NCBI GenBank assembly: GCA_963820525.1 | Contig: CAWGAA010000001.1 | Span: 736,001 to 800,000, forward strand | DNA from: an uncultured Spirochaetota bacterium | GTDB taxonomy: Bacteria; Spirochaetota; Spirochaetia; SZUA-6; Fen-1364 | Direction: 5' to 3' | DNA length: 64,000 nucleotides | Shown: positions 2,359 to 62,970 of the stretch, in pieces | Layout: the number at the start of each line of letters is the position of its first letter | Numbering within the stretch: position 1 is the first letter of the stretch | Program-made: the position numbers and the translations under genes | The notes under the pieces: model-generated | What the model saw: the letters and a program-made list of their open reading frames with translations, nothing else | What the model was told of the DNA's origin: nothing | Database searches by the model: none

Positions 2359-3075
2359 ATGGAATACAGTTCTAAGAAAAAATGCTTTGTATTAATGCCA
2401 TTTGAGGTAAAATATGTCGAAATTTATTCAGAAGTATATAAGTCAGTTTGCGAAAGCAATGGTGTTTCCTGCTGGCGTGTTGACGAAATATCTCGTCCTG
2501 GTTCAATAACAAAAGATATTGTTGATGGAATTCTTGATGCAGATTTAATTATTGCAGATTTAACTAGCAGAAATCCTAATGTTTTTTATGAATTGGGTAT
2601 TGCTCATAGTACAGGAAATAAGACAATAATGACATCCCAGAATAAGGGAGATGTTCCTTTCGATATATCAAATTATAGAATTATTTTCTATGAACAGTCA
2701 ATTCTAGGAAGTAAAAAGTTATTTCGTGATCTCGATCATGCGATAAAAGAATTGCTTAAAAGTCTTTTAAATACAAACAACCCTGTTCAAGAAGTATTAT
2801 CTAACCGTTCAATAATTGGCCTGCGAAAGAGAATTCCAATAATGAGTGTTATTAGTCCCAAAAGGACATATAATCAGATTAGACAATTAATTATCAAAGA
2901 AAATATCCAATACGTTGATGAATTAAAGAGATTAAACCTAGAAGGAATTAAAAGAAAATATAAAATGGGACCAATAATAATGGGTACTCTTGTTCGGGTA
3001 ATGCTAGATAACGATGCTTATGATGATTTATCAGAATTACAAAAGTTTATTTTAAAATACAATCTTGATACCTAA
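2359..3075 (+). CDS. Nucleoside 2-deoxyribosyltransferase-like (TIR-related fold) domain protein
   Basis: CFVLMPF...RVDE...ADLIIADLTSRNPNVFYELGIAH...VPFDI motif series. Confidence 0.8.
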   Translation: MEYSSKKKCFVLMPFEVKYVEIYSEVYKSVCESNGVSCWRVDEISRPGSITKDIVDGILDADLIIADLTSRNPNVFYELGIAHSTGNKTIMTSQNKGDVPFDISNYRIIFYEQSILGSKKLFRDLDHAIKELLKSLLNTNNPVQEVLSNRSIIGLRKRIPIMSVISPKRTYNQIRQLIIKENIQYVDELKRLNLEGIKRKYKMGPIIMGTLVRVMLDNDAYDDLSELQKFILKYNLDT

Positions 3076-3197
3076 ATATCAAAATACGCATAACATGCTG
3101 TTGGAGTTGACCGCCTAGGCTACGCGTCGTGACTGATAGCTATGCGCGCTTAAGTCTTTGTACTTGGATGATTCGGGGCGGCAACTCAACAGCGTCG

Positions 3198-3519
3198 TTA
3201 CATCCACGCTAATAATTTCTTTGAGAGAATATTTTGCCTGTTCTGTTTTGAATTATTCAAAGCAAATAAAGAATTCGATTTAGCAATCTTGCAGGTTTTA
3301 CTTTGGTGAATTCCTCTGATACTTTTGCGCGGGCCATGTAAGTTCCCATTGGAACAGCTCGCGCTCATTAGCTGAAAGGGCGTTATTAACCTTTCTGGAA
3401 TCGTATTCTTTCGCTATTGGTTGAATTCTATCATCAATCAACTAACCTTATATTTTTTTCATATCGTGAAGCTTCTTTGCTGGCCCGCGCATATTGTTCT
3501 GTTTCCGCGTAGATGTAAC
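3198..3519. other. Gene-less cassette family A (exemplar; 20 complete copies plus a partial at 1-39)
   Basis: ~320 bp body with TGCGCGGGCCA (3326-3336) / TGGCCCGCGCA (3481-3491) inverted repeat and a GTTCC-N4-GGAAC hairpin. Copies: 3198-3519, 3624-3940, 4833-5147, 5251-5569, 5672-5992, 6095-6417, 10546-10864, 11866-12184, 21848-22170, 27667-27985, 29287-29605, 32239-32561, 33935-34257, 34360-34675, 35170-36605(IS), 36710-37032, 41239-41557, 43795-44117, 51604-51926, 59480-59798. Confidence 0.9.
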
Positions 3520-4066
3520 ATGCGGTTGGAGCAGACCGCTTTGACTACGCATCGTTACTGATAGCTACGCGTGTTAAAACCAATTGTACCTTGATGATGC
3601 GGCGCGGCTGCTCAACCGCGTCGTTACATCCAACGCTAAGAAATATCTTATTGAAGATTCCATATGGCTGCTTAGGATTACTCAAGATAAATGAAGACTA
3701 TTCGATTCAGCTGCATATGCTACCTTGTTGAATTCTTGTCTTACTTTTGCGCGGGCCATGTAAGTTCCTATTGGAACAGCTCTCGCCCATTAGCTGAAAG
3801 GGCATTATTAACCTTTCCTGCATCATTTTCTTTCGCTTTGCCTGAATTCTATCATCAATCAACTAACCTTAGATTTCCTTCATATCTTGAAGCTTCTTTG
3901 TTGGCCCGCGCATATTGTTCTGTTTCCGCGTAGATGTAACATTCGGTTGGAGCAGACCGCTTAGCCTACGCTTCGTTACTTATTCCTACGTGTGTTAAAG
4001 CAATTGTACCTGTATTATGCGGAGCGGCTGCTCAACCGGGCGTTATGCGGCTTTAAGGGGCAATAA

Positions 4067-4687
4067 TTGAAGCGTTTATTAACACCACTATTCATCTTCA
4101 TATTATTCATGAATAGACTTGCAGCACAGGATATTCGCATAGAAGGAATTTCATTTCATGCAAAGCTGAAATCTCAAAATCTCGATCTCATTGTTAAAAA
4201 AGACGTTGGTGTTTTCAAATTGATGAAGTTTGTTGTTTCGCCTATGCATTCAATCGAGTGTATTTCTTCACAATTCATTTTAAGTGATCAACTTCGGCAA
4301 CTTCATCGCGAATGGGGTATAGATCAGGTTAAAGAAGACAAGGCTTTTCATGATTCTATCGAAAAGCAATTAGCATTCTGGCAGAAAGAACTTGAGAATT
4401 CTATCTTTTCAGTTTTTGGAATCCAAGAAGCCCTTAATCTATACATAATCAGCCGTTCCACTTTTAATGACCGTGACTATATAATTTATCAATATAGCGG
4501 CAGTGACGCTATCTATGGCGGTTACCTTGCATTTCTAGATAAAAAAGGAATGCTTTTAGAAAATATTCCACTCGTCGAGGATCAAGCTCGTGAAACGATC
4601 GGTACTGCATTTTTGATAGATGAACATTCAGTACTTGTATTACGGCAAGGCCTTAATATGATATTTATTTACCTGGAGTATTTTTAG
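4067..4687 (+). CDS. Hypothetical exported protein
   Basis: Fills its cassette; AAGGGG RBS; signal-peptide-like N-terminus MKRLLTPLFIFILFMNRLAA. Confidence 0.75.
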   Translation: MKRLLTPLFIFILFMNRLAAQDIRIEGISFHAKLKSQNLDLIVKKDVGVFKLMKFVVSPMHSIECISSQFILSDQLRQLHREWGIDQVKEDKAFHDSIEKQLAFWQKELENSIFSVFGIQEALNLYIISRSTFNDRDYIIYQYSGSDAIYGGYLAFLDKKGMLLENIPLVEDQARETIGTAFLIDEHSVLVLRQGLNMIFIYLEYF

Positions 4688-7366
4688 TATTCTTTGTACT
4701 ATTTATCAAGCATATAGTAGCCGCATAACATGCTGTTGGAGTTGACCGCCTAGGCTACGCTTCGTCACCAATAACGACGCGCGCTAAAGCCTTTGTACTT
4801 GGATGATTCGGGGCGGCAACTCAACAGCGTCGTTACATTCAACGCTAAGATAGATCTTTTGGAATATTCCCTATATTCTGCGTAGAATCACTCAAGATAA
4901 AGAAGACTATACGATTTAGCTTTATATGTTACTTTGTCGAATTCTTGTTTTACTTTTGCGCGGGCCATGTAAGTTCCCATTGGAACAGCTCGCGCTCATT
5001 AGCTTAAAGGGCATTATTACCTTTTAAAATCCTTTTATTTCACTATTGCTTGAATTCTATCTTCAATCAACCAACCTTGTATTTTGTTCCTATCTTAGAC
5101 TTCTCTGTCGGCCCGCGCATATTGTTCTGTTTCCGCGTAAATGTAACAAGTCGTTGCAGCTGACCGCCTGGGCTACGCGTCGTTACAAATAATTACGCGT
5201 GCTGTAGCATATACACTTTTCCTGATTCGGGGCGGCAGCTGAACTCCATGTTACATTCAACGCTAAGAATTTGTAGGAAGATTCCCTTTGTTTTTCTATT
5301 ATAACTCAAGATAAATGAAGACTATTCAATTTAGCTATATTGCATATTTTACCTCGTTGAATTCTTGTCTTACTTTTGCGCGGGCCATGTAAGTTCCCAT
5401 TGGAACAGCTCGCGCTCATTAGCTGAAAGGGCGTTATTAACCTTTCTGGAATCGTATTCTTTCGCTATTGGTTGAATTCTATCATCAATCAATCAACCTT
5501 GTATTTCGTTCATATCTTAGACTTCTCTGTTGGCCCGCGCATATTGTTCTGTTTCCGCGTAGATGTAACATTCGGTTGGAGCAGACCGCTTAGCCTACGC
5601 TTCGTTACTTATTCCTAGGTGTGTTAAAGCAATTGTACCTGTATTATGCGGCACGGCTGCTCAACCGGGCGTTACATCCACGCTAATAATTTCTTTGAGA
5701 GAATATTTTGCCTGTTCTGTTTTGAATTATTCAAAGCAAATAAAGAATTCGATTTAGCAATCTTGCAGGTTTTACTTTGGTGAATTCCTCTGATACTTTT
5801 GCGCGGGCCATGTAAGTTCCCATTGGAACAGCTCGCGCCCATTAGCTTAAAGGGCATTATTAACCTTTTTAGAATCGTATTCTTTCGCTATTGGTTGAAT
5901 TCTATCATCAATCAACTAACCTTGTATTTCATTCATATCTTAGACTTCTCTGTTGGCCCGCGCATATTGTTTTGTTTCCGCGTAAATGTAACATTCGGTT
6001 GGAGCAGACCGCTTAGCCTACGCGTCGTTACTGATTGTTACGCTTGCTAAAATAATTGTACCTGGATGATGCGGCGCGGCTGCTCAACCGTGCGTTACAT
6101 TCAACGCTAAGAATTCTTTTATAGGAAGATTCCCTTTGTTTTTCTATTATAACTCAAGATAGATGAAGACTATTTAATTTAGCTATATTGCATATTTTAC
6201 CTCGTTGAATTCTTGTCTTACTTTTGCGCGGGCCATGTAAGTTCCCATTGGAACAGCTCGCGCTCATTAGCTGAAAGGGCGTTATTAACCTTTCTGGAAT
6301 CTTATTCTTTCGCTATTGGTTGAATTCTATCATCAATCAATCAACCTTGTATTTCGTTCATATCTTAGACTTCTCTGTTGGCCCGCGCATATTGTTTTGT
6401 TTCCGCGTAAATGTAACATTCGGTTGGAGCAGACCGCTTGGGCTACGCATCGTTACTAATTGCTACGCTTGCTAAAATAATTGTACCTAGATGATTCGGC
6501 GCGGCTGCTCAACCGTGCGTTATATCCAATCTAGATTTATATTGATTATCGAATAGGCAACGAATTAGTAATTCAATAAAAAGAGATAATACGTGTTTCA
6601 ATAGCTTGTTTAACCATGATGGCGTTGGCATTGCTCTGGAAGGATGGCGGTGTTGTACTAATGTTGCTTGCTTGCTCTTAGTTTCAATACACTGCACGTC
6701 ACCGTGGCTTAATGGTCAACGATTTCATTATAGGGCTCGGATCAAGCTCTTTCTCTTGAAACAACAACTCTTTTCTGTTGTCCTCAACGCCATCATACTG
6801 GATGGATATAACATGCTGTTGGAGTTGTCCGCCTAGGCTACGCGTCGTTACTTATAGCTACGTTTGCTAGGGTTCCTTCGGTTGCTGATTCGGGGCGGCA
6901 ACTCAACAGCGTCGTTATATCCGATCAAATTTATGGTGATTAGCAATGAATTAAATAATTATTAATTCAATAATATTGGAGAAGAGGTTTTTCAATAACT
7001 TGCTTTTCCATGATGGCGTTGTCATTTCTCTGGAAGATTGGCGGTGTTGTACTACATTTCCTGCTTATTGCTAGCTTCAATACCCTGCACGTCACCTTGG
7101 CGTATTATCACCGATTACATTCAACGGCTCGGATCAAGTTCATTTTATTGATTCGATAGCATTTTTTCTGCTTTCCTCAACGCCATCATACTTGATGGAT
7201 ATAACATGCTGTTGGAGTTGTCCGCCTAGGCTACGCGTCGTGACTTATAGCTACGCGCTGTAAAGCCTTTGTACTTGGATGAATCGGGGCGGCAACTCAA
7301 CAGCGTCGTTATCTCCATCTAAAATTATGCTTATTAGCAATGAAACAATGAATTATACATAGCGTC

Positions 7367-10033: not shown

Positions 10034-11035
10034 CTAGCAGAATGCCATGAAGTCGATGATCATAGCGGGATTCCTGTGAACGACGGATTTCGTCTTGCAG
10101 TCCAAGGATGATAGTGGGGGCATCCGCGATAATCAGTTGTTTCATTCCTATATAAAATCACATTATGCAATTATGCGCAATTACTTAAGACGCTCTGTAT
10201 AATAATTCAATAATATAGGATAAGACGTTTTTCAATTTCATGTTTGCCCATGATGGCGTTGGCATTGCTCTGGAAGGATGGCGGTGTTGTACTACATTGC
10301 CTGCTTGTCTTTAATTTCAATGCATGGCACGTCACCTTGGCTTATTATCACCGATTACATTCTACGGCTCGGATCAAGCTCTTTCAATTGATTCGATAGA
10401 TCTTTTCTGCTTTCCTCAACGCCATCATACTGGATGGAGATAACATGTCGTTGCAGCTGACCGCCCAAGCTACGCGTCGTTACCGTAAACTACGCTCACT
10501 CAAGCATTTGTTTATTCTTATGCGGGGCGGCAGCTGAACTCATCGTTACATCCACGCTAATAATTTCTTTGAGAGAATATTTTGCCTGTTCTGTTTTGAA
10601 TTATTCAAAGCAAATAAAGAATTCTATTTAGCAATCTTGCAGGTTTTACTTTGGTGAATTCCTCTGATACTTTTGCGCGGGCCATGTAAGTTCCCATTGG
10701 AACAGCTCGCGCCCATTAGCTGAAAGGGTATCATCAACTTTTAACATCATTTTCTTTCGCTATGCCCGAATTCTATCATCAATCAATTAACCTTATATTT
10801 TCTTTATATCGTGAAGCTTCTTTGCTGGCCCGCGCATATTGTTCTGTTTCCGCGTAGATGTAACATGCTGTTGGAGTTGTCCGCCTAGGCTACGCGTCGT
10901 TACTGATAGCTACGCGTGTTGAAGTATTTGTACTTAGATGATTCGGGGCGGCAACTCAACAGCGTCGTTACACGGCTCTAAAAAACTATATTTACAGAAG
11001 TATCTCATTCTCTGCAATAAGAGGATTAAGCAAAC

Positions 11036-14619: not shown

Positions 14620-15171
14620 ATGGAGCATGATATGGATTTCTCCAAAGTAGCCACGCCCGAAAAGGGCAATTTTCTAATCGCGTTCATAGATATCCAAAAT
14701 TTCTTGGTCATTTCAAAAGCGCTGCCAGATCCAGTACAGCTATTTGAGCTCTTAAACTCTTGGGCCAATGTCATCATCAAGGAAATTGATAAGACTCCAG
14801 GCCGAGTACTTAAGTTTATCGGTGACGCATGTCTTATCATTTTTCCAGATGATTCAGTTGATTTAGGAGTACTGTCTTTGCTATCAATAAAGGATCAAGC
14901 CGAGAAGCACTTAAAAAACAATGGTTTTCACAACAAAATACGTATTACAGCTCACTTCGGAGAAGCTGCCATAGGTCAATTTGGCACTGGACTCACAAAA
15001 ATAATAGATATAATCGGAGATACAGTGAATGTAGCTGCTTCCTTGTCGCGAGGGGATCATCGCGGCAGGCTCATTATCTCACCACAGGTTTTCCGAAAGT
15101 TGGCTGCATCAACAAGGAAGTTATTCCACAAGTACACACCGCCTGTTGTGTACTTAGCTCTAGAGAATTGA
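14620..15171 (+). CDS. Stand-alone class III nucleotide (adenylate/guanylate) cyclase domain protein
   Basis: FIDIQNF, KFIGDA, IGDTVNVAASL motifs. Confidence 0.88.
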   Translation: MEHDMDFSKVATPEKGNFLIAFIDIQNFLVISKALPDPVQLFELLNSWANVIIKEIDKTPGRVLKFIGDACLIIFPDDSVDLGVLSLLSIKDQAEKHLKNNGFHNKIRITAHFGEAAIGQFGTGLTKIIDIIGDTVNVAASLSRGDHRGRLIISPQVFRKLAASTRKLFHKYTPPVVYLALEN

Positions 15172-26076: not shown

Positions 26077-27162
26077 CCTGAATTCAACCTCGAAGTGCAA
26101 CGATTCTTATTTTTCATGATACACCTCCTGGAGCGTTCTGTAGCCGTGCCGTTTTCTAGGCCTTGAGTTTAGGCTAAAGGCAATCTGCTCGCATAGAGCT
26201 TGAGTGACATCCCTCATGCAGGTTTTCTTTGGAAGATACTGACGGATCAAACCGTTTAGGTTCTCGTTGCTGCCTCGCTCCCAGGAATGATAAGGCGTTG
26301 CAAAGTAGCATTTCAGTTCGGAATGATCCTCCAGGGGCCTGTAGTCATGGAATTCTGTACCGTTGTCCAAGGTGAGTGTCTTGAAGTTGGCTACGTTCTC
26401 CCTAATAGCCGGCAGTGCTGCCTCTGTTACTGAGGCTGCTGTTCTTGAGCTCATTTTCCTTATGATAGCAAATCCCGACTTTCGTTCCACCAGAGTGAGG
26501 ATGCAGTGATGAAGGTCCCTGCCCATGACGGTGTCGCCCTCCCAATGACCCAATTCTTTACGAGTTTCAACCTCTGGAGGCCTCGTTGAAATATGGCGTT
26601 TTCCTGGGAGAATTCCTCTTGAATCCCTTGAATTGTAACGTTTTCGCCGCAGTTTCGGCATGATTCGAAGGTTCTTAAATAGCGTTCCTCCATGTTTCTT
26701 ATCGTTCAGGATGTACTTGTAGATGGTCTCGTGACTGATTGTGAATGATCCATTCTTCTTCTGGTAAGCAGATATCTGTTCAGGGCTCCATTTCTCTTTC
26801 AAAAGAACAGTTACTTGCTGCATTTGTTCTGGGCTGAAGCGCGAACCGCGCCTTTCACGTCGCCGTCTTGCAGTTGAATAGCTTTGGGCAAGCTCAGCTC
26901 GGTACCTCAAGTCATGGTTAGTTCGGTTTCGATGAAGTTCCCTGCTGATCGTGCTAGCTGAGCGACCTAGCTCACGTGCAATGTCAGCTTTAGATCTTCG
27001 GCTTACTAAAAAAGCTGTTATGGTGTATCTTTCTTCTCGAGAGAGTTGGTGATAGTTATTCATGTATGAATCCCCTTTCTTGGCGGAAAATGGAGGCATA
27101 CAATAATATCTCAGCTCTCTCATTTTTAATCCATATCGTTGCGCTTACTATTTGAACCTGCG
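26077..27162 (-). mobile_element. IS30-family element copy 1 (1086 bp; transposase 26107-27123)
   Basis: Imperfect IRs CCTGAATTCAACCTCGAAGTGCAACGAT / CGCAGGTTCAAATAGTAAGCGCAACGAT; CTG duplication; WSPEQI, GHWEGDTV, DNGTEF, WERGSNENLNGLIRQYLPK. Confidence 0.95.
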
Positions 27163-31371: not shown

Positions 31372-32663
31372 CTAGGCTACGCGTCGTTACTGATAGCTAC
31401 GCGTGTTGAAGTATTTGTACTTAGATGATTCGGGGCGGCAACTCAACAGCGTCGTTATCTCCATCTCAATTTATCTTGATTAGAAATGAAGTAAAGAATT
31501 ATTAATTCAATGATCTTTGATAAGACGTTTTTCAATAGCTTGTTTGCACATGATGGCGTTGGCATTGCTCTGGAAGGATGGCGATGTTGTACTACATTGC
31601 CTGCTTGTCTTTAGTTTCAATGCATGGCACGCCACCTTGGCTTATTATCACCGATTACATTCTACGGCTTAGATCAAGCTCTTTCAAATGATTCGCTAGA
31701 TCTTTTCTGCTTTCCTCAACGCCATCATACTGGATGGAGATAACATGTCGTTGCAGCTGACCGCCCAAGTTACGCGTCGTCACTTGAAACTACGCGTTCT
31801 CAGGTATTTCATTTTCTTGAGGCGGGGCGGCAGCTGAACTCCTTGTTATATCCAATCAAATTTATGATGATTAGAAATGATGTAAAGAATTATAATTCAA
31901 TAATATTGGATAGGAGGTTTTTCAATAGATTGCTTTCCCATGATGGCGTTGACATTGCTCTGGAAGGATGGCGGTGTTGTACTACTTTTCATGCTTGTCT
32001 TTAGTTTCAATGCATGGTACGTCACCTTGGCTTATTATCACCGATTACATTCTACGGCTTGGATCAAGCTCTTTCAATTGATTCGCTATATCTTTTCTGC
32101 TTTCCTCAACGCCATCATACTGGATGGATATAACATGCTGTTGGAGTTGACCGCCTAGGCTACGCACCGTGACTAGTAGCTACGCGCGGTAAAACCTTTT
32201 GTACTTGGATGATTCGGGGCGGCAACTCAACAGCGTCGTTACATTCAACGCTAAGAATTCTTTTATAGGAAGATTCCCTTTGTTTTTCTATTATAACTCA
32301 AGATAAATGAAGACTATTCAATTTAGCTATATTGCATATTTTACCTCGTTGAATTCTTGTCTTACTTTTGCGCGGGCCATGTAAGTTCCCATTGGAACAG
32401 CTCGCGCTCATTAGCTGAAAGGGCGTTATTAACCTTTCTGGAATCGTATTCTTTCGCTATTGGTTGAATTCTATCATCAATCAATCAACCTTGTATTTCG
32501 TTCATGTCTTAGACTTCTCTGTTGGCCCGCGCATATTGTTTTGTTTCCGCGTAAATGTAACATTCGGTTGGAGCAGACCGCTTGGGCTACGCATCGTTAC
32601 TAATTGCTACGCTTGCTAAAATAATTGTACCTAGATGATTCGGCGCGGCTGCTCAACCGTGCG

Positions 32664-33000
32664 TTATATTCACGCATATTGAAGATTCTTAGATAATTTC
32701 AGTATTAGTTCCCTGTATACGTATGCTTGAGTATTGCTATCATAAAGGGCTTTTTTCCTATTTGAGTAATGTTGTGAGATTCACCTCTTTCATTTCTTTT
32801 CTTTCCTTTGCGCGGGCCCTGGTAGTCACTAGGTCAAAGCTCGCGCCACTCTTTTGGTGGCCTCTCTTACCTTTTAACCTTGTTTTCTTTCGTTCAAGGT
32901 TGAAGTCTAGATTCAACCTGTTGCGGTCAGCTTTTTTCACTCTCTTATAGTTCTCTGCATCGGCCCGCGCTAGTCTCTTATGTTTCCGCGTAAATATAAC
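32664..33000. other. Gene-less cassette family C (diverged relative of A; 4 copies)
   Basis: Shares GCGCGGGCC/GGCCCGCGC, AGCTCGCGC and TGTTTCCGCGTA with family A. Copies: 32664-33000, 33104-33440, 37135-38560(IS30), 39055-39391. Confidence 0.85.
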
Positions 33001-35358
33001 AAGTCGTTGAAGCCGACCCCTTGACGTCCGGCTGAAAGTGTAGCAGCGGATTCGTAACAGCCGTCACGGTTGATCTGATGCGGCGGGGCGGCTTAACTCC
33101 ATGTTATATTCACGCATATTGAAGATTCTTAGATAATTTCAGTATTAGTTCCCTGTATACGTATGCTTGAGTATTGCTATCATAAAGGGCTTTTTTCCTA
33201 TTTGAGTAATGTTGTGAGATTCACCTCTTTCATTTCTTTTCTTTCCTTTGCGCGGGCCCTGGTAGTCACTAGGTCAAAGCTCGCGCCACTCTTTTGGTGG
33301 CCTCTCTTACCTTTTAACCTTGTTTTCTTTCGTTCAAGGTTGAAGTCTAGATTCAACCTGTTGCGGTCAGCTTTTTTCACTCTCTTATAGTTCTCTGCAT
33401 CGGCCCGCGCTAGTCTCTTATGTTTCCGCGTAAATATAACAAGTCGTTGCAGCTGACCGCCTAGGCTACGCGTCGTTAGAAATAACTACGCTCGTTCAAG
33501 TATTTGTTCTTTCTTGATTCGGGGCGGCAGCTGAACTCCATGTTATCTCCATCTAAATTTATATTGATTATCAATGAAGCACCAAATTATCAATTCAAGG
33601 ATATGGTATAAGACTTTTTTCAATTTCATATTTACTCATGATGGCGTTGGCATTGTTCTGGAAGGATGGCGGTGTTGTACTAGTTTGCCTGCTTGTTTTT
33701 AGGTTCAATACACTGCGCGTCACCTTGGCTTATTGTCACCGATTACATTATAGGGCTCGGATCAAGCTCTTTTAATTGATTCGATTGCTCTTTTTCTGCT
33801 TTCCTCAACGCCATCATACTGGATGGAGATAACATGTCGTTGCAGCTGACCGCCCAAGCTACGCGTCGTCACTTAGAACTACGCGCGCTCAGGTATTTCA
33901 TTTTTTTGATACGGGGCGGCAGCTGAACTCCTTGTTACATTCAACGCTAAGAATTCTTTTGTAGGAAGATTCCCTTTGTTTTTCTATTATAACTCAAGAT
34001 AAATGAAGACTATTCAATTTAGCTATATTGCATATTTTACCTCGTTGAATTCTTGTCTTACTTTTGCGCGGGCCATGTAAGTTCCCATTGGAACAGCTCG
34101 CGCTCATTAGCTGAAAGGGCGTTATTAACCTTTCTGGAATCGTATTCTTTCGCTATTGGTTGAATTCTATCATCAATCAATCAACCTTGTATTTCGTTCA
34201 TATCTTAGACTTCTCTGTTGGCCCGCGCATATTGTTTTGTTTCCGCGTAAATGTAACATTCGGTTGGAGCAGACCGCTTGGGCTACGCATCGTTACTAAT
34301 TGCTACGCTTGCTAAAATAATTGTACCTAGATGATTCGGCGCGGCTGCTCAACCGTGCGTTACATTCAACGCTAAGATATATCTTGTGGAATATTCGCTA
34401 TATTCTGCATAGAATCACTCAAGATAAAGAAGACTATACGATTTAGCTTTATATGTTACTTTGTCGAATTCTTGTTTTACTTTTGCGCGGGCCATGTAAG
34501 TTCCCATTGGAACAGCTCGCGCTCATTAGCTTAAAGGGCATTATTACCTTATAAAATCCTTTTATTTCACTATTGGTTGAATTCTATCTTCAATCAACTA
34601 ACCTTATATTTTTATCATATCGTGAAGCTTCTCTGTCGGCCCGCGCATATTGTTCTGTTTCCGCGTAAATGTAACAAGTCGTTGCAGCTGACCGCCTGGG
34701 CTACGCGTCGTTACAAATAATTACGCGTGCTGTAGTATATACACTTTTCCTGATTCGGGGCGGCAGCTGAACTCCATGTTATCTCCATCTAGATTTGTAT
34801 TGATTAGCAATGAAGCAACGTATTATTAATTCAATAATATTGGATAAGACATTTTTCAATAGATTTCTTACCCATGATAGCGTTGTCATTGCTCTGGAAG
34901 GATGGCGGTGTTGTACTAGTTTGCCTGCTTGTTTTTAGTTTCAATACACTGCACGTCACCTTGGCTTGTTGGTAACGATTACATTTTAGGGCTCGGATCA
35001 AGCTCTTTCAATTGATTCAATAGATCTTTTCTGCTTTCCTCAACGCCATCATACTTGATGGAGATAACATGTCGTTGCAGCTGACCGCCCAAGCTACGCG
35101 TCGTCACTTAGAACTACGCGTGCTCAGGTATTTCCTCTTTTTGAGGCGGGGCGGCAGCTGAACTCCTTGTTATATCCACGCTAAAGAAATTCTTTGGGAG
35201 AATGTTTTGCTTGTTCTGTTTTGAATTACTCAAAGCAAATAAAGAATTCTCTTTCACAATCTTGCGGGTTTTACCTTGTTGAATTCTTTTGATACCTTTG
35301 CGCGGGCCATCTACGTTCCTGTTGGAACAGCTCGCGCACGTTAGCTAAAGGGGCATTA

Positions 35359-36469
35359 TACAGAGCGTCTTAAGTAATTGCGCATAATTGCATAATGTGA
35401 TTTTATATAGGAATGAAACAACTGATTATCGCGGATGCCCCCACTATCATCCTTGGACTGCAAGACGAAATCCGTCGTTCACAGGAATCCCGCTATGATC
35501 ATCGACTTCATGGCATTCTGCTCGTAGCACAGGGAATGAGCTGTATTGAGGTTGCGCATTTTCTCGGCGATGCACCACGAACCGTGCAGTATTGGATTCG
35601 CCGCTTCGAGGCGGAAGGACTCGCGGGCATTGTTGAAGGCGATCGAACTGGACGACCCACACGCCTCAAACCTGAACAAATACAAGAAGTGAGCCGCGCT
35701 CTTCGACAACCACCAGCTGCCGCTGGGTTGTCTGGTAACCTATGGGATGGAAAGACACTCTCCGCCTTCATTGTACAGCGCTATAAAGTCAGGTTGGGTG
35801 TACGTCAATGTCAACGCGTCTTTCGACAACTCAACTTCCGACTGCGCAAGCCTCGTCCAGTAATTGCGCGAGCCGATCCGACTCGCCAGACCGAGTATAA
35901 AAAAAACTCAAGGCGTTGATGCTGGATGAACAGATAGATTTGTGGGCGACGGATGAGGTACACTTTCAGCAGTACGGCTCACGATGCCGAATGTGGGTTC
36001 CACCCGAAGTCAAAGATCCGGTACTGCTACATTATCCCGGGCGAAAGAGCGTGGGATACTTCGGTGCCGTTCGTCTGCGCGACGGCAAATTCTTCTTCAA
36101 ACGCGAAGAGGATAGTTTCGACGCGAATACATTCTTCGTGTTCATGAAGCAATTGCGCTTCAGAGCTTCAAAGAGTCAAAGGCGCATCGTCGTGATCACT
36201 GATAATGCCAGATACCACCATGCAAAGCTCCACAAGCAGTGGCGCGAGGAGCACAGCGCATCTTTCATACTGGATTATCTGCCGCCGTATAGTCCCGATC
36301 TGAACCCAATCGAAAGAATGTGGAAGCTCACTAGACGGCTCTGTCTGCATAACAGATACTTCCCTACTATGGGCGATGTCACGTACGCGGTTGAAGACCG
36401 CTTCGCTCAGTGGGAGGCGCCAAATGAAACATTACGTCGTTTATGCGCAATTACTTAGGACGCTATGTA
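35359..36469 (+). mobile_element. IS630-family element, intact, slightly diverged variant (orfA 35413-35919, orfB 35916-36458)
   Basis: IRs; TA duplication at 35357-58 and 36470-71; inside a family A cassette. Confidence 0.94.
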
Positions 36470-37465
36470 TAATTACCTTTTTTAGCATCACTTTCTTTCG
36501 CTTTGCCTGAATTCTATCATCAATCAACTAACCTGATATTTTATCCATATCGTGAAGCTTGTCCTTCGGCCCGCGCATATTGGTCTGTTTCCGCGTAGAT
36601 ATAACATGCTGTTGGAGTTGACCGCCTAGGCGACGCTCCCCTACTTTCAACTACGCGCGGTAATGCATTTTGTGCTTGGATGATTCGGGGCGGCAACTCA
36701 ACAGCGTCGTTACATTCAACGCTAAGAATTCTTTTATAGGAAGATTCCCTTTGTTTTTCTATTATAACTCAAGATAGATTAAGACTATTCAATTTAGCTA
36801 TATTGCATATTTTACCTCGTTGAATTCTTGTCTTACTTTTGCGCGGGCCATGTAAGTTCCCATTGGAGCAGCTCGCGCTAATTAGCTGAAAGGGCGTTAT
36901 TAACCTTTCTGGAATCGTATTCTTTCGCTATTGGTTGAATTCTATCATCAATCAATCAACCTTGTATTTCGTTCATGTCTTAGACTTCTCTGTTGGCCCG
37001 CGCATATTGTTTTGTTTCCGCGTAAATGTAACATTCGGTTGGAGCAGACCGCTTGGGCTACGCATCGTTACTAATTGCTACGCTTGCTAAAATAATTGTA
37101 CCTAGATGATTCGGCGCGGCTGCTCAACCGTGCGTTATATTCACGCATATTGATGATTCTTAGATAATTTCAGTATTAGTTCCCTGTATACGTATGCTTG
37201 AGTATTGCTATCATAAAGGGCTTTTTTCCTATTTGAGTAATGTTGTGAGATTCACCTCTTTCATTTCTTTTCTTTCCTTTGCGCGGGCCCTGGTAGTCAC
37301 TAGCTCAAAGCTCGCGCCACTCTTTTGGTGGCCTCTATTACCTTTTAACCTTGTTTTCTTTCGTTCAAGGTTGAAGTCTAGATTCAACCTGTTGCGGTCA
37401 GCTTTTTTCACTCTCTTATAGTTCTCTGCATCGGCCCGCGCTAGTCTCTTATGTTTCCGCGTAAA

Positions 37466-38551
37466 CCTGAATTCAACCTCGAAGTGCAACGATTCTTATT
37501 TTTCATGATACACCTCCTGGGGCGTTCTGTAGCCGTGCCGTTTTCTAGGCCTTGAGTTTAGGCTAAAGGCAATCTGCTCGCATAGAGCTTGAGTGACATC
37601 CCTCATGCAGGTTTTCTTTGGAAGATACTGACGGATCAAACCGTTTAGGTTCTCGTTGCTGCCTCGCTCCCAGGAATGATAAGGCGTTGCAAAGTAGCAT
37701 TTCAGTTCGGAATGATCCTCCAGGGTCCTGTAGTCATGGAATTCTGTACCGTTGTCCAAGGTGAGTGTCTTGAAGTTGGCTACGTTCTCCCTAATAGCCG
37801 GCAGTGCTGCCTCTGTTACTGAGGCTGCTGTTCTTGAGCTCATTTTCCTTATGATAGCAAATCCCGACTTTCGTTCCACCAGAGTGAGGATGCAGTGATG
37901 AAGGTCCCTGCCCATGACGGTGTCGCCCTCCCAATGACCCAATTCTTTACGAGTTTCAACCTCTGGAGGCCTCGTTGAAATATGGCGTTTTCCTGGGAGA
38001 ATTCCTCTTGAATCCCTTGAATTGTAACGTTTTCGCCGCAGTTTCGGCATGATTCGAAGGTTCTTAAATAGCGTTCCTCCATGTTTCTTATCGTTCAGGA
38101 TGTACTTGTAGATGGTCTCGTGACTGATTGTGAATGATCCATTCTTCTTCTGGTAAGCAGATATCTGTTCAGGGCTCCATTTCTCTTTCAAAAGAACAGT
38201 TACTTGCTGCATTTGTTCTGGGCTGAAGCGCGAACCGCGCCTTTCACGTCGCCGTCTTGCAGTTGAATAGCTTTGGGCAAGCTCAGCTCGGTACCTCAAG
38301 TCATGGTTAGTTCGGTTTCGATGAAGTTCCCTGCTGATCGTGCTAGCTGAGCGACCTAGCTCACGTGCAATGTCAGCTTTAGATCTTCGGCTTACTAAAA
38401 AAGCTGTTATGGTGTATCTTTCTTCTCGAGAGAGTTGGTGATAGTTATTCATGTATGAATCCCCTTTCTTGGCGGAAAATGGAGGCATACAATAATATCT
38501 CAGCTCTCTCATTTTTAATCCATATCGTTGCGCTTACTATTTGAACCTGCG
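37466..38551 (-). mobile_element. IS30-family element copy 2 (transposase 37496-38512)
   Basis: Same IRs; AAA duplication. Confidence 0.95.
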
Positions 38552-44257: not shown

Positions 44258-44989
44258 ATGATTACTGAATTCCCTAAGAACATTCATGACAAGCTGAAAA
44301 CCTATGTCTACTTATATATTGATCCAAGAGATAATAGCATATTCTATGTAGGAAAAGGTGTCGGTAATCGTGCTTTTTCTCATCTAAAAGATTTTTCTGA
44401 AACATAAAAGTCTGAACGTATCCAAGAAATTACCCAACATGGCTCATGTCCAAGAATCGAAATATTAATCCACGGCCTTGATGATGAAACGGCAAAGAGG
44501 GTTGAAGCTTCGTTAATCGATTTGCTTGGAATTGATACTTTATTAAATCAAGTTAGAGGATACCAATCAAAAGAGTATGGCAGAATGTCACCAGAACAAT
44601 TAATCGCAGTCTATGACGTGGAAAAGGTTGAAATAGAAGAACCCTCGATACTTATAACTATCAATAAATCCTTTCACTACGGAATGCAGCCTATTGAACT
44701 ATATGATGCAACCAGATCAGCGTGGGTTATTGGTGAAAGGAAACGTGCCGCAAAATATGCATTAGCTGTCTATTCGGGAGTTGTTCAAGAAGTTTATGAA
44801 ATTAAGGATTGGTACCCATCACATTCTACTTTCAATACAAAAAACTATGAAGATGAAATTGAATCAAATGAGGATAGATGGGAATTTGTAGGAAAATTAG
44901 CTGACAATAAAATTAGAAATAAATATAAATTTAAAAATGTATCTGAATATGTTGGAGCTCAGAACCCTATAAAATATGTAAAATGCTAG
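44258..44989 (+). pseudogene. LEM-3-like GIY-YIG nuclease with in-frame TAA at 44405-44407
   Basis: [27 protein letters not shown] ... * ... AKRVEASLIDLLG, same frame as the 44522-44989 ORF. Confidence 0.85.
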
Positions 44990-44997
44990 ATTTGCCG

Positions 44998-46083
44998 CCT
45001 GAATTCAACCTCGAAGTGCAACGATTCTTATTTTTCATGATACACCTCCTGGGGCGTTCTGTAGCCGTGCCGTTTTCTAGGCCTTGAGTTTAGGCTAAAG
45101 GCAATCTGCTCGCATAGAGCTTGAGTGACATCCCTCATGCAGGTTTTCTTTGGAAGATACTGACGGATCAAACCGTTTAGGTTCTCGTTGCTGCCTCGCT
45201 CCCAGGAATGATAAGGCGTTGCAAAGTAGCATTTCAGTTCGGAATGATCCTCCAGGGTCCTGTAGTCATGGAATTCTGTACCGTTGTCCAAGGTGAGTGT
45301 CTTGAAGTTGGCTACGTTCTCCCTAATAGCCGGCAGTGCTGCCTCTGTTACTGAGGCTGCTGTTCTTGAGCTCATTTTCCTTATGATAGCAAATCCCGAC
45401 TTTCGTTCCACCAGAGTGAGGATGCAGTGATGAAGGTCCCTGCCCATGACGGTGTCGCCCTCCCAATGACCCAATTCTTTACGAGTTTCAACCTCTGGAG
45501 GCCTCGTTGAAATATGGCGTTTTCCTGGGAGAATTCCTCTTGAATCCCTTGAATTGTAACGTTTTCGCCGCAGTTTCGGCATGATTCGAAGGTTCTTAAA
45601 TAGCGTTCCTCCATGTTTCTTATCGTTCAGGATGTACTTGTAGATGGTCTCGTGACTGATTGTGAATGATCCATTCTTCTTCTGGTAAGCAGATATCTGT
45701 TCAGGGCTCCATTTCTCTTTCAAAAGAACAGTTACTTGCTGCATTTGTTCTGGGCTGAAGCGCGAACCGCGCCTTTCACGTCGCCGTCTTGCAGTTGAAT
45801 AGCTTTGGGCAAGCTCAGCTCGGTACCTCAAGTCATGGTTAGTTCGGTTTCGATGAAGTTCCCTGCTGATCGTGCTAGCTGAGCGACCTAGCTCACGTGC
45901 AATGTCAGCTTTAGATCTTCGGCTTACTAAAAAAGCTGTTATGGTGTATCTTTCTTCTCGAGAGAGTTGGTGATAGTTATTCATGTATGAATCCCCTTTC
46001 TTGGCGGAAAATGGAGGCATACAATAATATCTCAGCTCTCTCATTTTTAATCCATATCGTTGCGCTTACTATTTGAACCTGCG
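44998..46083 (-). mobile_element. IS30-family element copy 3 (transposase 45028-46044)
   Basis: Same IRs; CCG duplication. Confidence 0.95.
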
Positions 46084-54629: not shown

Positions 54630-55715
54630 CCTGAATTCAACCTCGAAGTGCAACGATTCTTATTTTTCATGATACACCTCCTGGGGCGTTCTGTAGCCGT
54701 GCCGTTTTCTAGGCCTTGAGTTTAGGCTAAAGGCAATCTGCTCGCATAGAGCTTGAGTGACATCCCTCATGCAGGTTTTCTTTGGAAGATACTGACGGAT
54801 CAAACCGTTTAGGTTCTCGTTGCTGCCTCGCTCCCAGGAATGATAAGGCGTTGCAAAGTAGCATTTCAGTTCGGAATGATCCTCCAGGGTCCTGTAGTCA
54901 TGGAATTCTGTACCGTTGTCCAAGGTGAGTGTCTTGAAGTTGGCTACGTTCTCCCTAATAGCCGGCAGTGCTGCCTCTGTTACTGAGGCTGCTGTTCTTG
55001 AGCTCATTTTCCTTATGATAGCAAATCCCGACTTTCGTTCCACCAGAGTGAGGATGCAGTGATGAAGGTCCCTGCCCATGACGGTGTCGCCCTCCCAATG
55101 ACCCAATTCTTTACGAGTTTCAACCTCTGGAGGCCTCGTTGAAATATGGCGTTTTCCTGGGAGAATTCCTCTTGAATCCCTTGAATTGTAACGTTTTCGC
55201 CGCAGTTTCGGCATGATTCGAAGGTTCTTAAATAGCGTTCCTCCATGTTTCTTATCGTTCAGGATGTACTTGTAGATGGTCTCGTGACTGATTGTGAATG
55301 ATCCATTCTTCTTCTGGTAAGCAGATATCTGTTCAGGGCTCCATTTCTCTTTCAAAAGAACAGTTACTTGCTGCATTTGTTCTGGGCTGAAGCGCGAACC
55401 GCGCCTTTCACGTCGCCGTCTTGCAGTTGAATAGCTTTGGGCAAGCTCAGCTCGGTACCTCAAGTCATGGTTAGTTCGGTTTCGATGAAGTTCCCTGCTG
55501 ATCGTGCTAGCTGAGCGACCTAGCTCACGTGCAATGTCAGCTTTAGATCTTCGGCTTACTAAAAAAGCTGTTATGGTGTATCTTTCTTCTCGAGAGAGTT
55601 GGTGATAGTTATTCATGTATGAATCCCCTTTCTTGGCGGAAAATGGAGGCATACAATAATATCTCAGCTCTCTCATTTTTAATCCATATCGTTGCGCTTA
55701 CTATTTGAACCTGCG
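54630..55715 (-). mobile_element. IS30-family element copy 4 (transposase 54660-55676)
   Basis: Same IRs; CAA duplication. Confidence 0.95.
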
Positions 55716-58283: not shown

Positions 58284-59369
58284 CCTGAATTCAACCTCGA
58301 AGTGCAACGATTCTTATTTTTCATGATACACCTCCTGGGGCGTTCTGTAGCCGTGCCGTTTTCTAGGCCTTGAGTTTAGGCTAAAGGCAATCTGCTCGCA
58401 TAGAGCTTGAGTGACATCCCTCATGCAGGTTTTCTTTGGAAGATACTGACGGATCAAACCGTTTAGGTTCTCGTTGCTGCCTCGCTCCCAGGAATGATAA
58501 GGCGTTGCAAAGTAGCATTTCAGTTCGGAATGATCCTCCAGGGTCCTGTAGTCATGGAATTCTGTACCGTTGTCCAAGGTGAGTGTCTTGAAGTTGGCTA
58601 CGTTCTCCCTAATAGCCGGCAGTGCTGCCTCTGTTACTGAGGCTGCTGTTCTTGAGCTCATTTTCCTTATGATAGCAAATCCCGACTTTCGTTCCACCAG
58701 AGTGAGGATGCAGTGATGAAGGTCCCTGCCCATGACGGTGTCGCCCTCCCAATGACCCAATTCTTTACGAGTTTCAACCTCTGGAGGCCTCGTTGAAATA
58801 TGGCGTTTTCCTGGGAGAATTCCTCTTGAATCCCTTGAATTGTAACGTTTTCGCCGCAGTTTCGGCATGATTCGAAGGTTCTTAAATAGCGTTCCTCCAT
58901 GTTTCTTATCGTTCAGGATGTACTTGTAGATGGTCTCGTGACTGATTGTGAATGATCCATTCTTCTTCTGGTAAGCAGATATCTGTTCAGGGCTCCATTT
59001 CTCTTTCAAAAGAACAGTTACTTGCTGCATTTGTTCTGGGCTGAAGCGCGAACCGCGCCTTTCACGTCGCCGTCTTGCAGTTGAATAGCTTTGGGCAAGC
59101 TCAGCTCGGTACCTCAAGTCATGGTTAGTTCGGTTTCGATGAAGTTCCCTGCTGATCGTGCTAGCTGAGCGACCTAGCTCACGTGCAATGTCAGCTTTAG
59201 ATCTTCGGCTTACTAAAAAAGCTGTTATGGTGTATCTTTCTTCTCGAGAGAGTTGGTGATAGTTATTCATGTATGAATCCCCTTTCTTGGCGGAAAATGG
59301 AGGCATACAATAATATCTCAGCTCTCTCATTTTTAATCCATATCGTTGCGCTTACTATTTGAACCTGCG
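58284..59369 (-). mobile_element. IS30-family element copy 5 (transposase 58314-59330)
   Basis: Same IRs; CCA duplication. Confidence 0.95.
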
Positions 59370-61884: not shown

Positions 61885-62970
61885 CCTGAATTCAACCTCG
61901 AAGTGCAACGATTCTTATTTTTCATGATACACCTCCTGGGGCGTTCTGTAGCCGTGCCGTTTTCTAGGCCTTGAGTTTAGGCTAAAGGCAATCTGCTCGC
62001 ATAGAGCTTGAGTGACATCCCTCATGCAGGTTTTCTTTGGAAGATACTGACGGATCAAACCGTTTAGGTTCTCGTTGCTGCCTCGCTCCCAGGAATGATA
62101 AGGCGTTGCAAAGTAGCATTTCAGTTCGGAATGATCCTCCAGGGTCCTGTAGTCATGGAATTCTGTACCGTTGTCCAAGGTGAGTGTCTTGAAGTTGGCT
62201 ACGTTCTCCCTAATAGCCGGCAGTGCTGCCTCTGTTACTGAGGCTGCTGTTCTTGAGCTCATTTTCCTTATGATAGCAAATCCCGACTTTCGTTCCACCA
62301 GAGTGAGGATGCAGTGATGAAGGTCCCTGCCCATGACGGTGTCGCCCTCCCAATGACCCAATTCTTTACGAGTTTCAACCTCTGGAGGCCTCGTTGAAAT
62401 ATGGCGTTTTCCTGGGAGAATTCCTCTTGAATCCCTTGAATTGTAACGTTTTCGCCGCAGTTTCGGCATGATTCGAAGGTTCTTAAATAGCGTTCCTCCA
62501 TGTTTCTTATCGTTCAGGATGTACTTGTAGATGGTCTCGTGACTGATTGTGAATGATCCATTCTTCTTCTGGTAAGCAGATATCTGTTCAGGGCTCCATT
62601 TCTCTTTCAAAAGAACAGTTACTTGCTGCATTTGTTCTGGGCTGAAGCGCGAACCGCGCCTTTCACGTCGCCGTCTTGCAGTTGAATAGCTTTGGGCAAG
62701 CTCAGCTCGGTACCTCAAGTCATGGTTAGTTCGGTTTCGATGAAGTTCCCTGCTGATCGTGCTAGCTGAGCGACCTAGCTCACGTGCAATGTCAGCTTTA
62801 GATCTTCGGCTTACTAAAAAAGCTGTTATGGTGTATCTTTCTTCTCGAGAGAGTTGGTGATAGTTATTCATGTATGAATCCCCTTTCTTGGCGGAAAATG
62901 GAGGCATACAATAATATCTCAGCTCTCTCATTTTTAATCCATATCGTTGCGCTTACTATTTGAACCTGCG
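61885..62970 (-). mobile_element. IS30-family element copy 6 (transposase 61915-62931)
   Basis: Same IRs; AGA duplication. Confidence 0.95.

Follow-up and report, generated by a model that had tools for sequence, protein, structure and literature searches.

Gene-less cassettes that recur many times within one integron have been described since 2006. In the cited sections of the report on Vibrio (Boucher et al. 2006, PMC1382264), one family of paralogous non-coding cassettes numbers 45 and 34 copies in two V. vulnificus strains, non-coding cassettes make up 6-49% of an array and lack homologues beyond close kin, and selfishness, promoter function or an RNA product are offered as options for such families. 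Most of 29 gene-less Vibrio cassettes tested have promoter activity, which is not predictable in silico (Blanco et al. 2024, PMC11014356), Treponema cassettes devoid of an open reading frame (ORF) also have promoter activity (Tansirichaiya et al. 2019, PMC6557892), and sRNA-Xcc1 of Xanthomonas is a cassette-borne small RNA that runs opposite to the array direction (PMC12444791, PMC8876359). Integron integrases act on the folded bottom strand of attC, the folding probability of which governs excision (PMC5371416), and cassette length has little effect on excision below 1.5 kb (Loot et al.), all as given in the parts of these sources cited here. What causes large integrons to fill with repeated gene-less cassettes is a question standing since 2006. 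Here we analyse a window of 64,000 nucleotides (C1:736001-800000, + strand, C1 being the contig) that lies inside a sedentary chromosomal integron of an uncultured Spirochaetota bacterium, together with a repeated gene-less cassette, family A, that occurs throughout this window; positions given without a contig name are those of the window.

Family A is a true integron cassette, with a GTT core, an AAC inverse core and an attC site carrying L and R boxes, and purifying selection acts on its GC-rich arms. What repeats is a gene-less cassette body of 316-338 bp, each copy being closed by an attC. The genome holds 40 copies (42 nhmmer hits, two copies being split in two), all on the + strand of a single array: 38 are whole, comprising 32 of a main type and six of a divergent subtype D, and two are split by insertion sequences. 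A genome-wide nhmmer search and a further search found none outside this array, a second integron included. The preliminary description had counted 21 copies, a figure that holds for main-type copies within the window (19 of them whole, one split by IS630 and one present as a tail at 1-39) but missed four divergent D copies. Subtype D, 338 bp long, has 59% identity to the main consensus and keeps all three of the arms described below. Pairwise identity among the 40 copies spans 52-100%, and they are conserved along their whole length.

The interval 3198-6417 alone comprises six family A copies and one unrelated coding cassette (4042-4729, with a 206-residue ORF at 4067-4687 that has no Pfam match). 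After copy 1, of subtype S1, come copies of subtypes S4 (3623-3940), S5 (4832-5147) and S3 (5250-5569), a mosaic copy with an S1 leader and an S3-like 3' part (5671-5992), and another S3 copy (6094-6417), all on the + strand, as are the further main-type copies starting at 10545, 11865, 21847, 27666, 29286, 32238, 33934, 34359, 36709, 41238, 43795, 51603 and 59479 (the last ending by 59798). The main-type copy interrupted by IS630 has that element at 35169-36605. Subtype D is represented at 32663-33000 and by copies starting at 33103, 37134 (with an IS30 element in its end) and 39054. Eight groups of family A bodies are identical although tens of kilobases apart, and each subtype of body has its own attC variant, both of which point to movement of whole cassettes, the body together with its attC. 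Pieces of several of the subtypes, with small variants, occur in contigs of all four sequencing runs examined, which come from three metagenome studies of sediment or wetland; two of these runs may be the source sample, and no RNA run was among those listed as carrying the family.

Copy 1 (3197-3519, +), which runs from the GTT core to the AAC inverse core and has an identical counterpart 43.6 kb upstream, illustrates the layout. Its 5' terminal arm (R' plus an extension, 3197-3209), the first 10 bases of which are of the same kind as in family B, a second gene-less family described below, pairs with 3507-3519. The AT-rich variable leader (3210-3325) has no shared fold of note and carries a weak promoter-like match (7/12) before arm 1. 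There follow arm 1 of the long-range stem P1 (3326-3335), the GTTCC-N4-GGAAC hairpin of the main type only (3342-3355), arm 2 (3356-3364), arm 3 of P1 (3482-3491) and the conserved tail (3492-3519), with the 3' terminal arm and R'' at 3507-3519; all of these lie on the + strand except arm 2, to which no strand is assigned: on the + strand it can take the place of arm 3 in pairing with arm 1, one of the pairs being G-T, and on the - strand it forms a GC-GNRA-GC mini-hairpin. The attC that moves with copy 1 spans ~115 bp (3514-3628, +). The near-invariant motifs singled out in the preliminary description lie where it had placed them, with TGCGCGGGCC at 22 window sites, GGCCCGCGCA at 20, the GTTCC-N4-GGAAC hairpin at 19 and the tail motif TGTTTCCGCGTA at 23 (35 genome-wide, all on the + strand within the array).

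Conservation had been said to focus on paired segments, and it is indeed concentrated on the GC-rich arms. Among 28 distinct family A sequences, D included, none of the 27 columns of arms 1-3 (GC-rich 9-mers) has a variant shared by two distinct sequences, versus 67 of the 84 other G/C columns; the corresponding Fisher p of 1e-14 is overstated because alignment columns are not independent. The long-range pairing also holds, as arms 1 and 3, ~147 nt apart, are perfect inverted copies of each other, a match reached by 0/2000 dinucleotide shuffles for the main type and 1/2000 for D. The P1 stem is predicted with a probability of ~1 for either strand and for RNA as well as DNA (1.0 in all nine representatives), and the fold of the core alignment is more stable than column shuffles (z of -5.2 on the + strand and -4.8 on the - strand), a stability that does not separate RNA from DNA. 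Of the earlier reading as a structured element, stability beyond shuffles is supported and covariation is not: the long-range stem has no compensatory change (236 of its 240 cells are Watson-Crick and the remaining four are unrepaired), the covariance term lies within the range of shuffled alignments, and a double change occurs in one of 19 pairs overall, a value reached by 151 of 500 shuffles. This test has low power, the sequences being few and closely related, and constitutes weak evidence either way.

The inner helices are less well kept than the arms, differing between subtypes and between the main type and D, which has hairpins of its own; the longest inner hairpin measures 5 bp in the main type and 8 bp in D. 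The hairpin with a varying loop and a held stem is a feature of the main type (loops CATT in 24, TGTT in five and TATT in three of 32 whole copies; 119 of 120 stem cells Watson-Crick across 24 distinct sequences), whereas the six D copies lack it. Similarly, the GC(C/T)C...GGGC pairing is present in most main-type sequences but broken at the C/T pair in four of 24, failing in subtype S2, and is absent from D.

A coding reading of family A is rejected on the evidence of even codon positions, shifting frames and the lack of protein relatives, and its description as a gene-less, non-coding cassette bounded by attC sites is upheld. In none of the six frames of families A and B do alleles favour a codon position, and the synonymous share (0.17-0.29) is close to the expected 0.21-0.24 in both. 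Reading frames are broken by indels, as first described, with indel lengths mostly not multiples of three. ATG frames of more than 50 codons occur in 18 of 36 family A copies and of more than 70 codons in six of 36, and they look like chance because none is kept across subtypes; the longest open frames, of up to 80 codons, belong to single subtypes and shift between them. Searches found no Pfam match for the three longest frames and no homologue of the D frame, and the matches of an 80-residue frame were limited to two translated tandem repeats, which we judged spurious.

Family B comprises 66 gene-less copies of ~291 bp, heavily mosaic and with 68/68 hits on the + strand (for example 1904-2194, 6519-6812 and 6914-7205). 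Alignment of A and B bodies does not exceed shuffles, and the layout of B is nonetheless like that of A, an AT-rich leader being followed by a 12-bp inverted repeat around 155 nt. This repeat, too, lies beyond shuffles (p about 1/2000 or less), and its arms carry a shared variant in 0 of 24 columns versus 54 of 92 other columns. No such GC-rich inner repeat is seen in the array's coding cassettes, and of 32 gene-less cassettes taken from arrays elsewhere most are without one.

The two families also share their ends: 102 of 104 A and B cassettes start with GTTAY(A/C)TNCA, versus 0 of 68 others. As a consequence of this common end class, attC sites between gene-less neighbours pair better, with 8.7 of 10 pairs formed on the R side at a mean pairing probability of 0.93 (n=64), compared with 5.5-6.1 of 10 pairs and probabilities of 0.66-0.80 at other junctions (n=101). 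When the bottom strand was folded with both flanking attC sites, all eight sampled coding cassettes closed on their own end stem, leaving an attC R box probability below 0.03; for the 14 cassettes sampled from A and the 14 from B it averaged ~0.5. The pairing of the cassette ends is real in family A, and it covaries. We rejected it as a special trait of that family, given perfect 9-14-bp end repeats in 55 of 58 coding cassettes shorter than 1.5 kb; the own-end repeats of coding cassettes measure 9-14 bp as against 4.5 bp for mismatched ends. Nearly every cassette of this array has a perfect terminal inverted repeat of its own sequence, 9-14 bp long with a mode of 12-13, and in arrays from other genomes of the phylum such repeats are mostly 7-9 bp; the long terminal repeats may have to do with the formation of cassettes or with their being locked at their sites.

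As to which strand folds, C/T variation in the inner pairing had been taken to fit the + strand, an argument that lapses because the site fits an A-U or G-U pair on the bottom strand equally well and hence does not fix the strand. On the top strand, arm 2 is predicted to pair with arm 1 before arm 3 is made (0.98-1.0 with an RNA model, in seven of nine representatives). On the bottom strand, arm 2 forms a GC-GNRA-GC mini-hairpin with a third pair, A-U or G-U, at the C/T site, and its loop reads GCGA in 35, GCAA in three and GAGA in one of the 39 copies read. Both natural variants, GCAA and GAGA, retain the bottom-strand GNRA loop and abolish the top-strand hairpin (0.08 and 0.07); they are two private events, which weakens the bottom-strand case. 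The bottom strand of family A is purine-rich, like attC sites and unlike coding cassettes, and the fixed mismatch of the A end stem is a G-T on that strand. The rare-allele spectrum showed no strand bias in family A, and the weak GC skew gave no readable replication direction. On balance the bottom strand is slightly ahead of the top as the folding strand, and this ordering is unproven.

The array that houses both families extends over C1:683476-824375 (+) in a genome of 60% G+C that is 96.7% complete. It contains 179 attC sites of ~115 bp, all on the + strand, following an intact-looking integrase, IntI (411 residues, C1:682092-683324, minus strand; 410 bits to TIGR02249, above the cut-off). 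Of its 179 slots, 40 are occupied by family A, 66 by family B and the remainder mostly by single genes or toxin-antitoxin pairs, so that A and B together fill 106 slots, or 59% of the array. The cassette directly after attI is a family B copy. A, B and coding cassettes follow one another at random (p>0.08 for all nine adjacency classes), as expected if no neighbour needs the gene-less cassettes. Twelve pairs of coding cassettes are also duplicated. Five coding cassettes at C1:699228-707642 reappear at C1:807376-816593, from the array start to its far end, in exactly reversed order and with 99.8-100% identity over the 600 bases compared, a pattern as if they had been copied to attI one by one.

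Among the options listed in the preliminary description, a selfish cassette fits best, and we tentatively favour, at somewhat less than an even chance, the view that the host integrase copies family A as a selfish or nearly neutral cassette, whose fold is selected as single-stranded DNA. IntI would excise and insert family A: the bottom strand would leave as a single-stranded circle and be re-inserted at attI, and excision followed by re-insertion would duplicate the cassette. This small circle could be folded compactly by its end stem of 13 bp together with the long-range stem, and selection would act at that stage. The ends shared by A and B would create well-paired attC sites wherever two gene-less cassettes adjoin, each copy easing further copying of both families until 59% of the array is filled. 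The weakest step in this model is that the inner stem might be kept because it helps the single-stranded intermediate.

Several points weigh against this selfish-cassette view. When arm 3 was permuted in 34 of 36 contexts, the predicted folding of attC showed no decrease but a slight rise, in an equilibrium treatment of naked single-stranded DNA that itself ignores single-stranded DNA-binding protein and replication timing; the idea that the inner stem promotes attC folding is not supported. Compaction may gain little, given the small effect of length on excision of cassettes this short (Loot et al.), and the gain at the R box is modest (0.93 vs ~0.75). The evidence on the folding strand is weak, with fold z-scores alike on both strands, and in subtype D a top-strand alternative hairpin folds (1.0) where the bottom-strand GNRA hairpin does not (0.0). 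The shared A and B ends could reflect common origin rather than selection. Finally, the long persistence of several subtypes, seen also in the runs of other studies, fits a benefit to the host as well.

The foremost alternative, possible though doubtful, is that each cassette is a gene for a structured non-coding RNA of ~165 nt (~180 nt in B) closed by the long-range stem, either on the top strand, where the leader would serve as promoter and arm 2 would pair transiently with arm 1 during transcription, or on the bottom strand, where the linkers are A-rich and the tetraloop is of GNRA type. It would account for the strong constraint on the arms of both families, for a stem of full predicted probability on either strand within a conserved fold (z ~-5), for a layout common to two unrelated families and lacking in coding cassettes and in most of the other gene-less ones compared, and for the GNRA loop kept by both natural arm 2 variants, and it has a precedent in the Xanthomonas small RNA, which is antisense to its array in the cited part of that work (PMC12444791). 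The long-range stem without compensatory change and the inner helices that vary between subtypes and against D speak in the opposite direction, as do an Rfam search with nothing at the gathering score and only small nucleolar RNA noise at E>1, and the lack of a terminator or consensus promoter in the copies scanned, a result that likewise gives no support to the internal promoter module suggested at first. An antitoxin, decoy or defence role, likewise proposed, found no partner: a search for antisense targets beyond the array yielded none (best E 0.3), and we detected no type III toxin among the cassette proteins scanned (a set that does not include every cassette ORF), no retron reverse transcriptase and no TnpB domain. 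Moreover, 40 to 66 copies would be unusual for a single functional RNA. We regard as unlikely, yet worth retaining, a related proposal that A and B converged on one design and jointly parasitise the integron, the stem-closed 165-180-nt domain being an active folded nucleic acid (a bottom-strand RNA or single-stranded DNA with a GNRA or GNNA loop) and the 12-13-bp end repeats serving to lock ordinary cassettes. A promoter or regulatory cassette, whose leader would drive neighbours in sense or antisense while the arms act as protein-binding sites or tuners of read-through, has the best precedent in the gene-less Vibrio and ORF-less Treponema cassettes found active in the cited sections (PMC11014356, PMC6557892), and a weak TTTAC(T/C)-17-TAC(T/C)TT match does stand directly before arm 1 in 25 of 40 copies. 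That match is broken in D and in four S2 copies, however, the promoter scan returned four sites (one of them in a family A leader) compared with 9.2 in shuffles, copies precede coding cassettes at chance frequency (16 observed versus 16.4 expected), and both the long-range inverted repeat and the random order would go unexplained; we hold this option to be unlikely.

Drift alone seems very unlikely to have produced these cassettes. A decayed gene or random AT-rich DNA that drifted up in number and was homogenised by recombination, its arms being there by chance, would be consistent with the mosaic copies, with an AT and purine skew like that of an antisense reading frame and with the pseudogene nature of some Vibrio gene-less cassettes, as noted in part of that literature. 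It is largely refuted by arms that stay unchanged across the 59% identity split, far below other G/C columns in variation, by an inverted repeat at p about 1/2000 or less in the main type, D and B alike, and by the lack both of a codon signal and of any protein relative of the longest frames. Most improbable of all is another known machine, be it a retron-like msr-msd, an invertible switch, a miniature inverted-repeat transposable element or a short peptide encoded on the bottom strand. In retron msr-msd regions, short inverted arms rich in G and C enclose ~150 nt, and the first arm is followed by small hairpins. The two-arm layout of family A resembles them and also invertible switches, but its cassette has no gene and no long msd-like hairpin, and the only reverse transcriptase that the genome yielded scores as a group II intron reverse transcriptase/maturase (335 bits, cut-off 300). 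An invertible switch is hard to reconcile with 42/42 A and 68/68 B hits on the + strand and with the absence of strand-changing joints among those listed for four runs, and a transposable element with the absence of copies outside the cassette context of the array and of a cassette with an empty site. The peptide has in its favour an ATG-led frame of 17-30 codons, which begins within arm 1 when the main type is read on its bottom strand; D lacks this ATG, the frame is displaced from one subtype to the next and synonymous changes are not in excess. The group II intron enzyme (C3:234490-235116) looks shortened at its start and is adjoined by mobile-element ORFs.

Homologues of family A were sought widely. 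BLAST searches were empty in 60 relatives and, with a D copy, in 400 genomes of the class; a covariance model of the core found none in 140 relatives; and profile and repeat scans of 40 stretches beside integrases, from 18 genomes of the phylum, found none. The covariance searches used the arm-to-arm core only and could miss homologues of the leader. Plasmids yielded no match and phages one 57-nt piece (E 0.007). We dismissed the sole match of the covariance model in 47 loci (27.8 bits), which breaks the stems and reads like half an attC, and likewise pattern matches in at least 119 metagenome stretches, in 17 and 13 viral ones and in five genomes, all attributable to chance. As many genomes are incomplete and arrays assemble badly, these negatives mean not found rather than absent. 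Five other arrays of the same class contain repeated gene-less cassettes of ~290-790 bp, with sequences unrelated to A and B.

Other elements share the locus and the genome. A second integron at C1:1954228-1967486 has its own integrase and ~7 attC sites and is free of families A and B. The genome has nine copies of an IS30-family element (1086 bp, with a 338-residue transposase), six of them in the window (26107-27123, 37496-38512, 45028-46044, 54660-55676, 58314-59330 and 61915-62931) and three outside it. In all nine the distance to the AAC of the attC R'' site that follows is identical, and there is a 3-bp duplication, regardless of the local sequence, so the element apparently targets attC sites; a literature search, at the level of titles and listings, showed nothing obviously on this subject. 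Three cassette proteins (2359-3075, 14620-15171 and 44522-44989) have partial matches to defence models, namely a TIR effector, a Pycsar-like cyclase and PD-T4-3.

The array offers sequence handles on the question of how gene-less cassettes accumulate, namely selected arms, a natural divergent subtype and a second family with the same layout, and the matching A and B ends predict that excision depends on the neighbouring cassette. If the selfish folding proposed here is correct, much of a 'superintegron' is a parasite load and not a gene bank. If instead a transcript exists, family A would be a new class of cassette-borne RNA, and convergence of A and B as joint parasites would, if true, provide the first mechanism for the amplification of gene-less cassettes. 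We found no description of a long-range stem or of matching ends in gene-less cassettes in the main texts covered by our literature search, subscription journals lying outside that coverage.

Compared with the small RNA cassette of Xanthomonas, which also encodes symE according to the cited part of the reports, family A has neither a gene nor an Rfam match. It resembles the promoter cassettes of Vibrionaceae and Treponema in being AT-rich and gene-less and in residing in a large sedentary integron, but its placement is random, and the sections of those reports cited here have no conserved long-range stem (PMC11014356, PMC6557892). Family A belongs to a known kind, the paralogous non-coding cassettes described since 2006: like the Vibrio families in the cited sections (PMC1382264), it is gene-less, bounded by attC, highly paralogous and conserved over its whole length. 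It differs from them in the conserved long-range stem and mutually matching ends, which that paper, where the words 'secondary structure' never occur, does not mention, in the shorter bodies of A and B (290-340 bp), and in the extent of occupation, as just two families here hold 59% of the slots against 6-49% for Vibrio.

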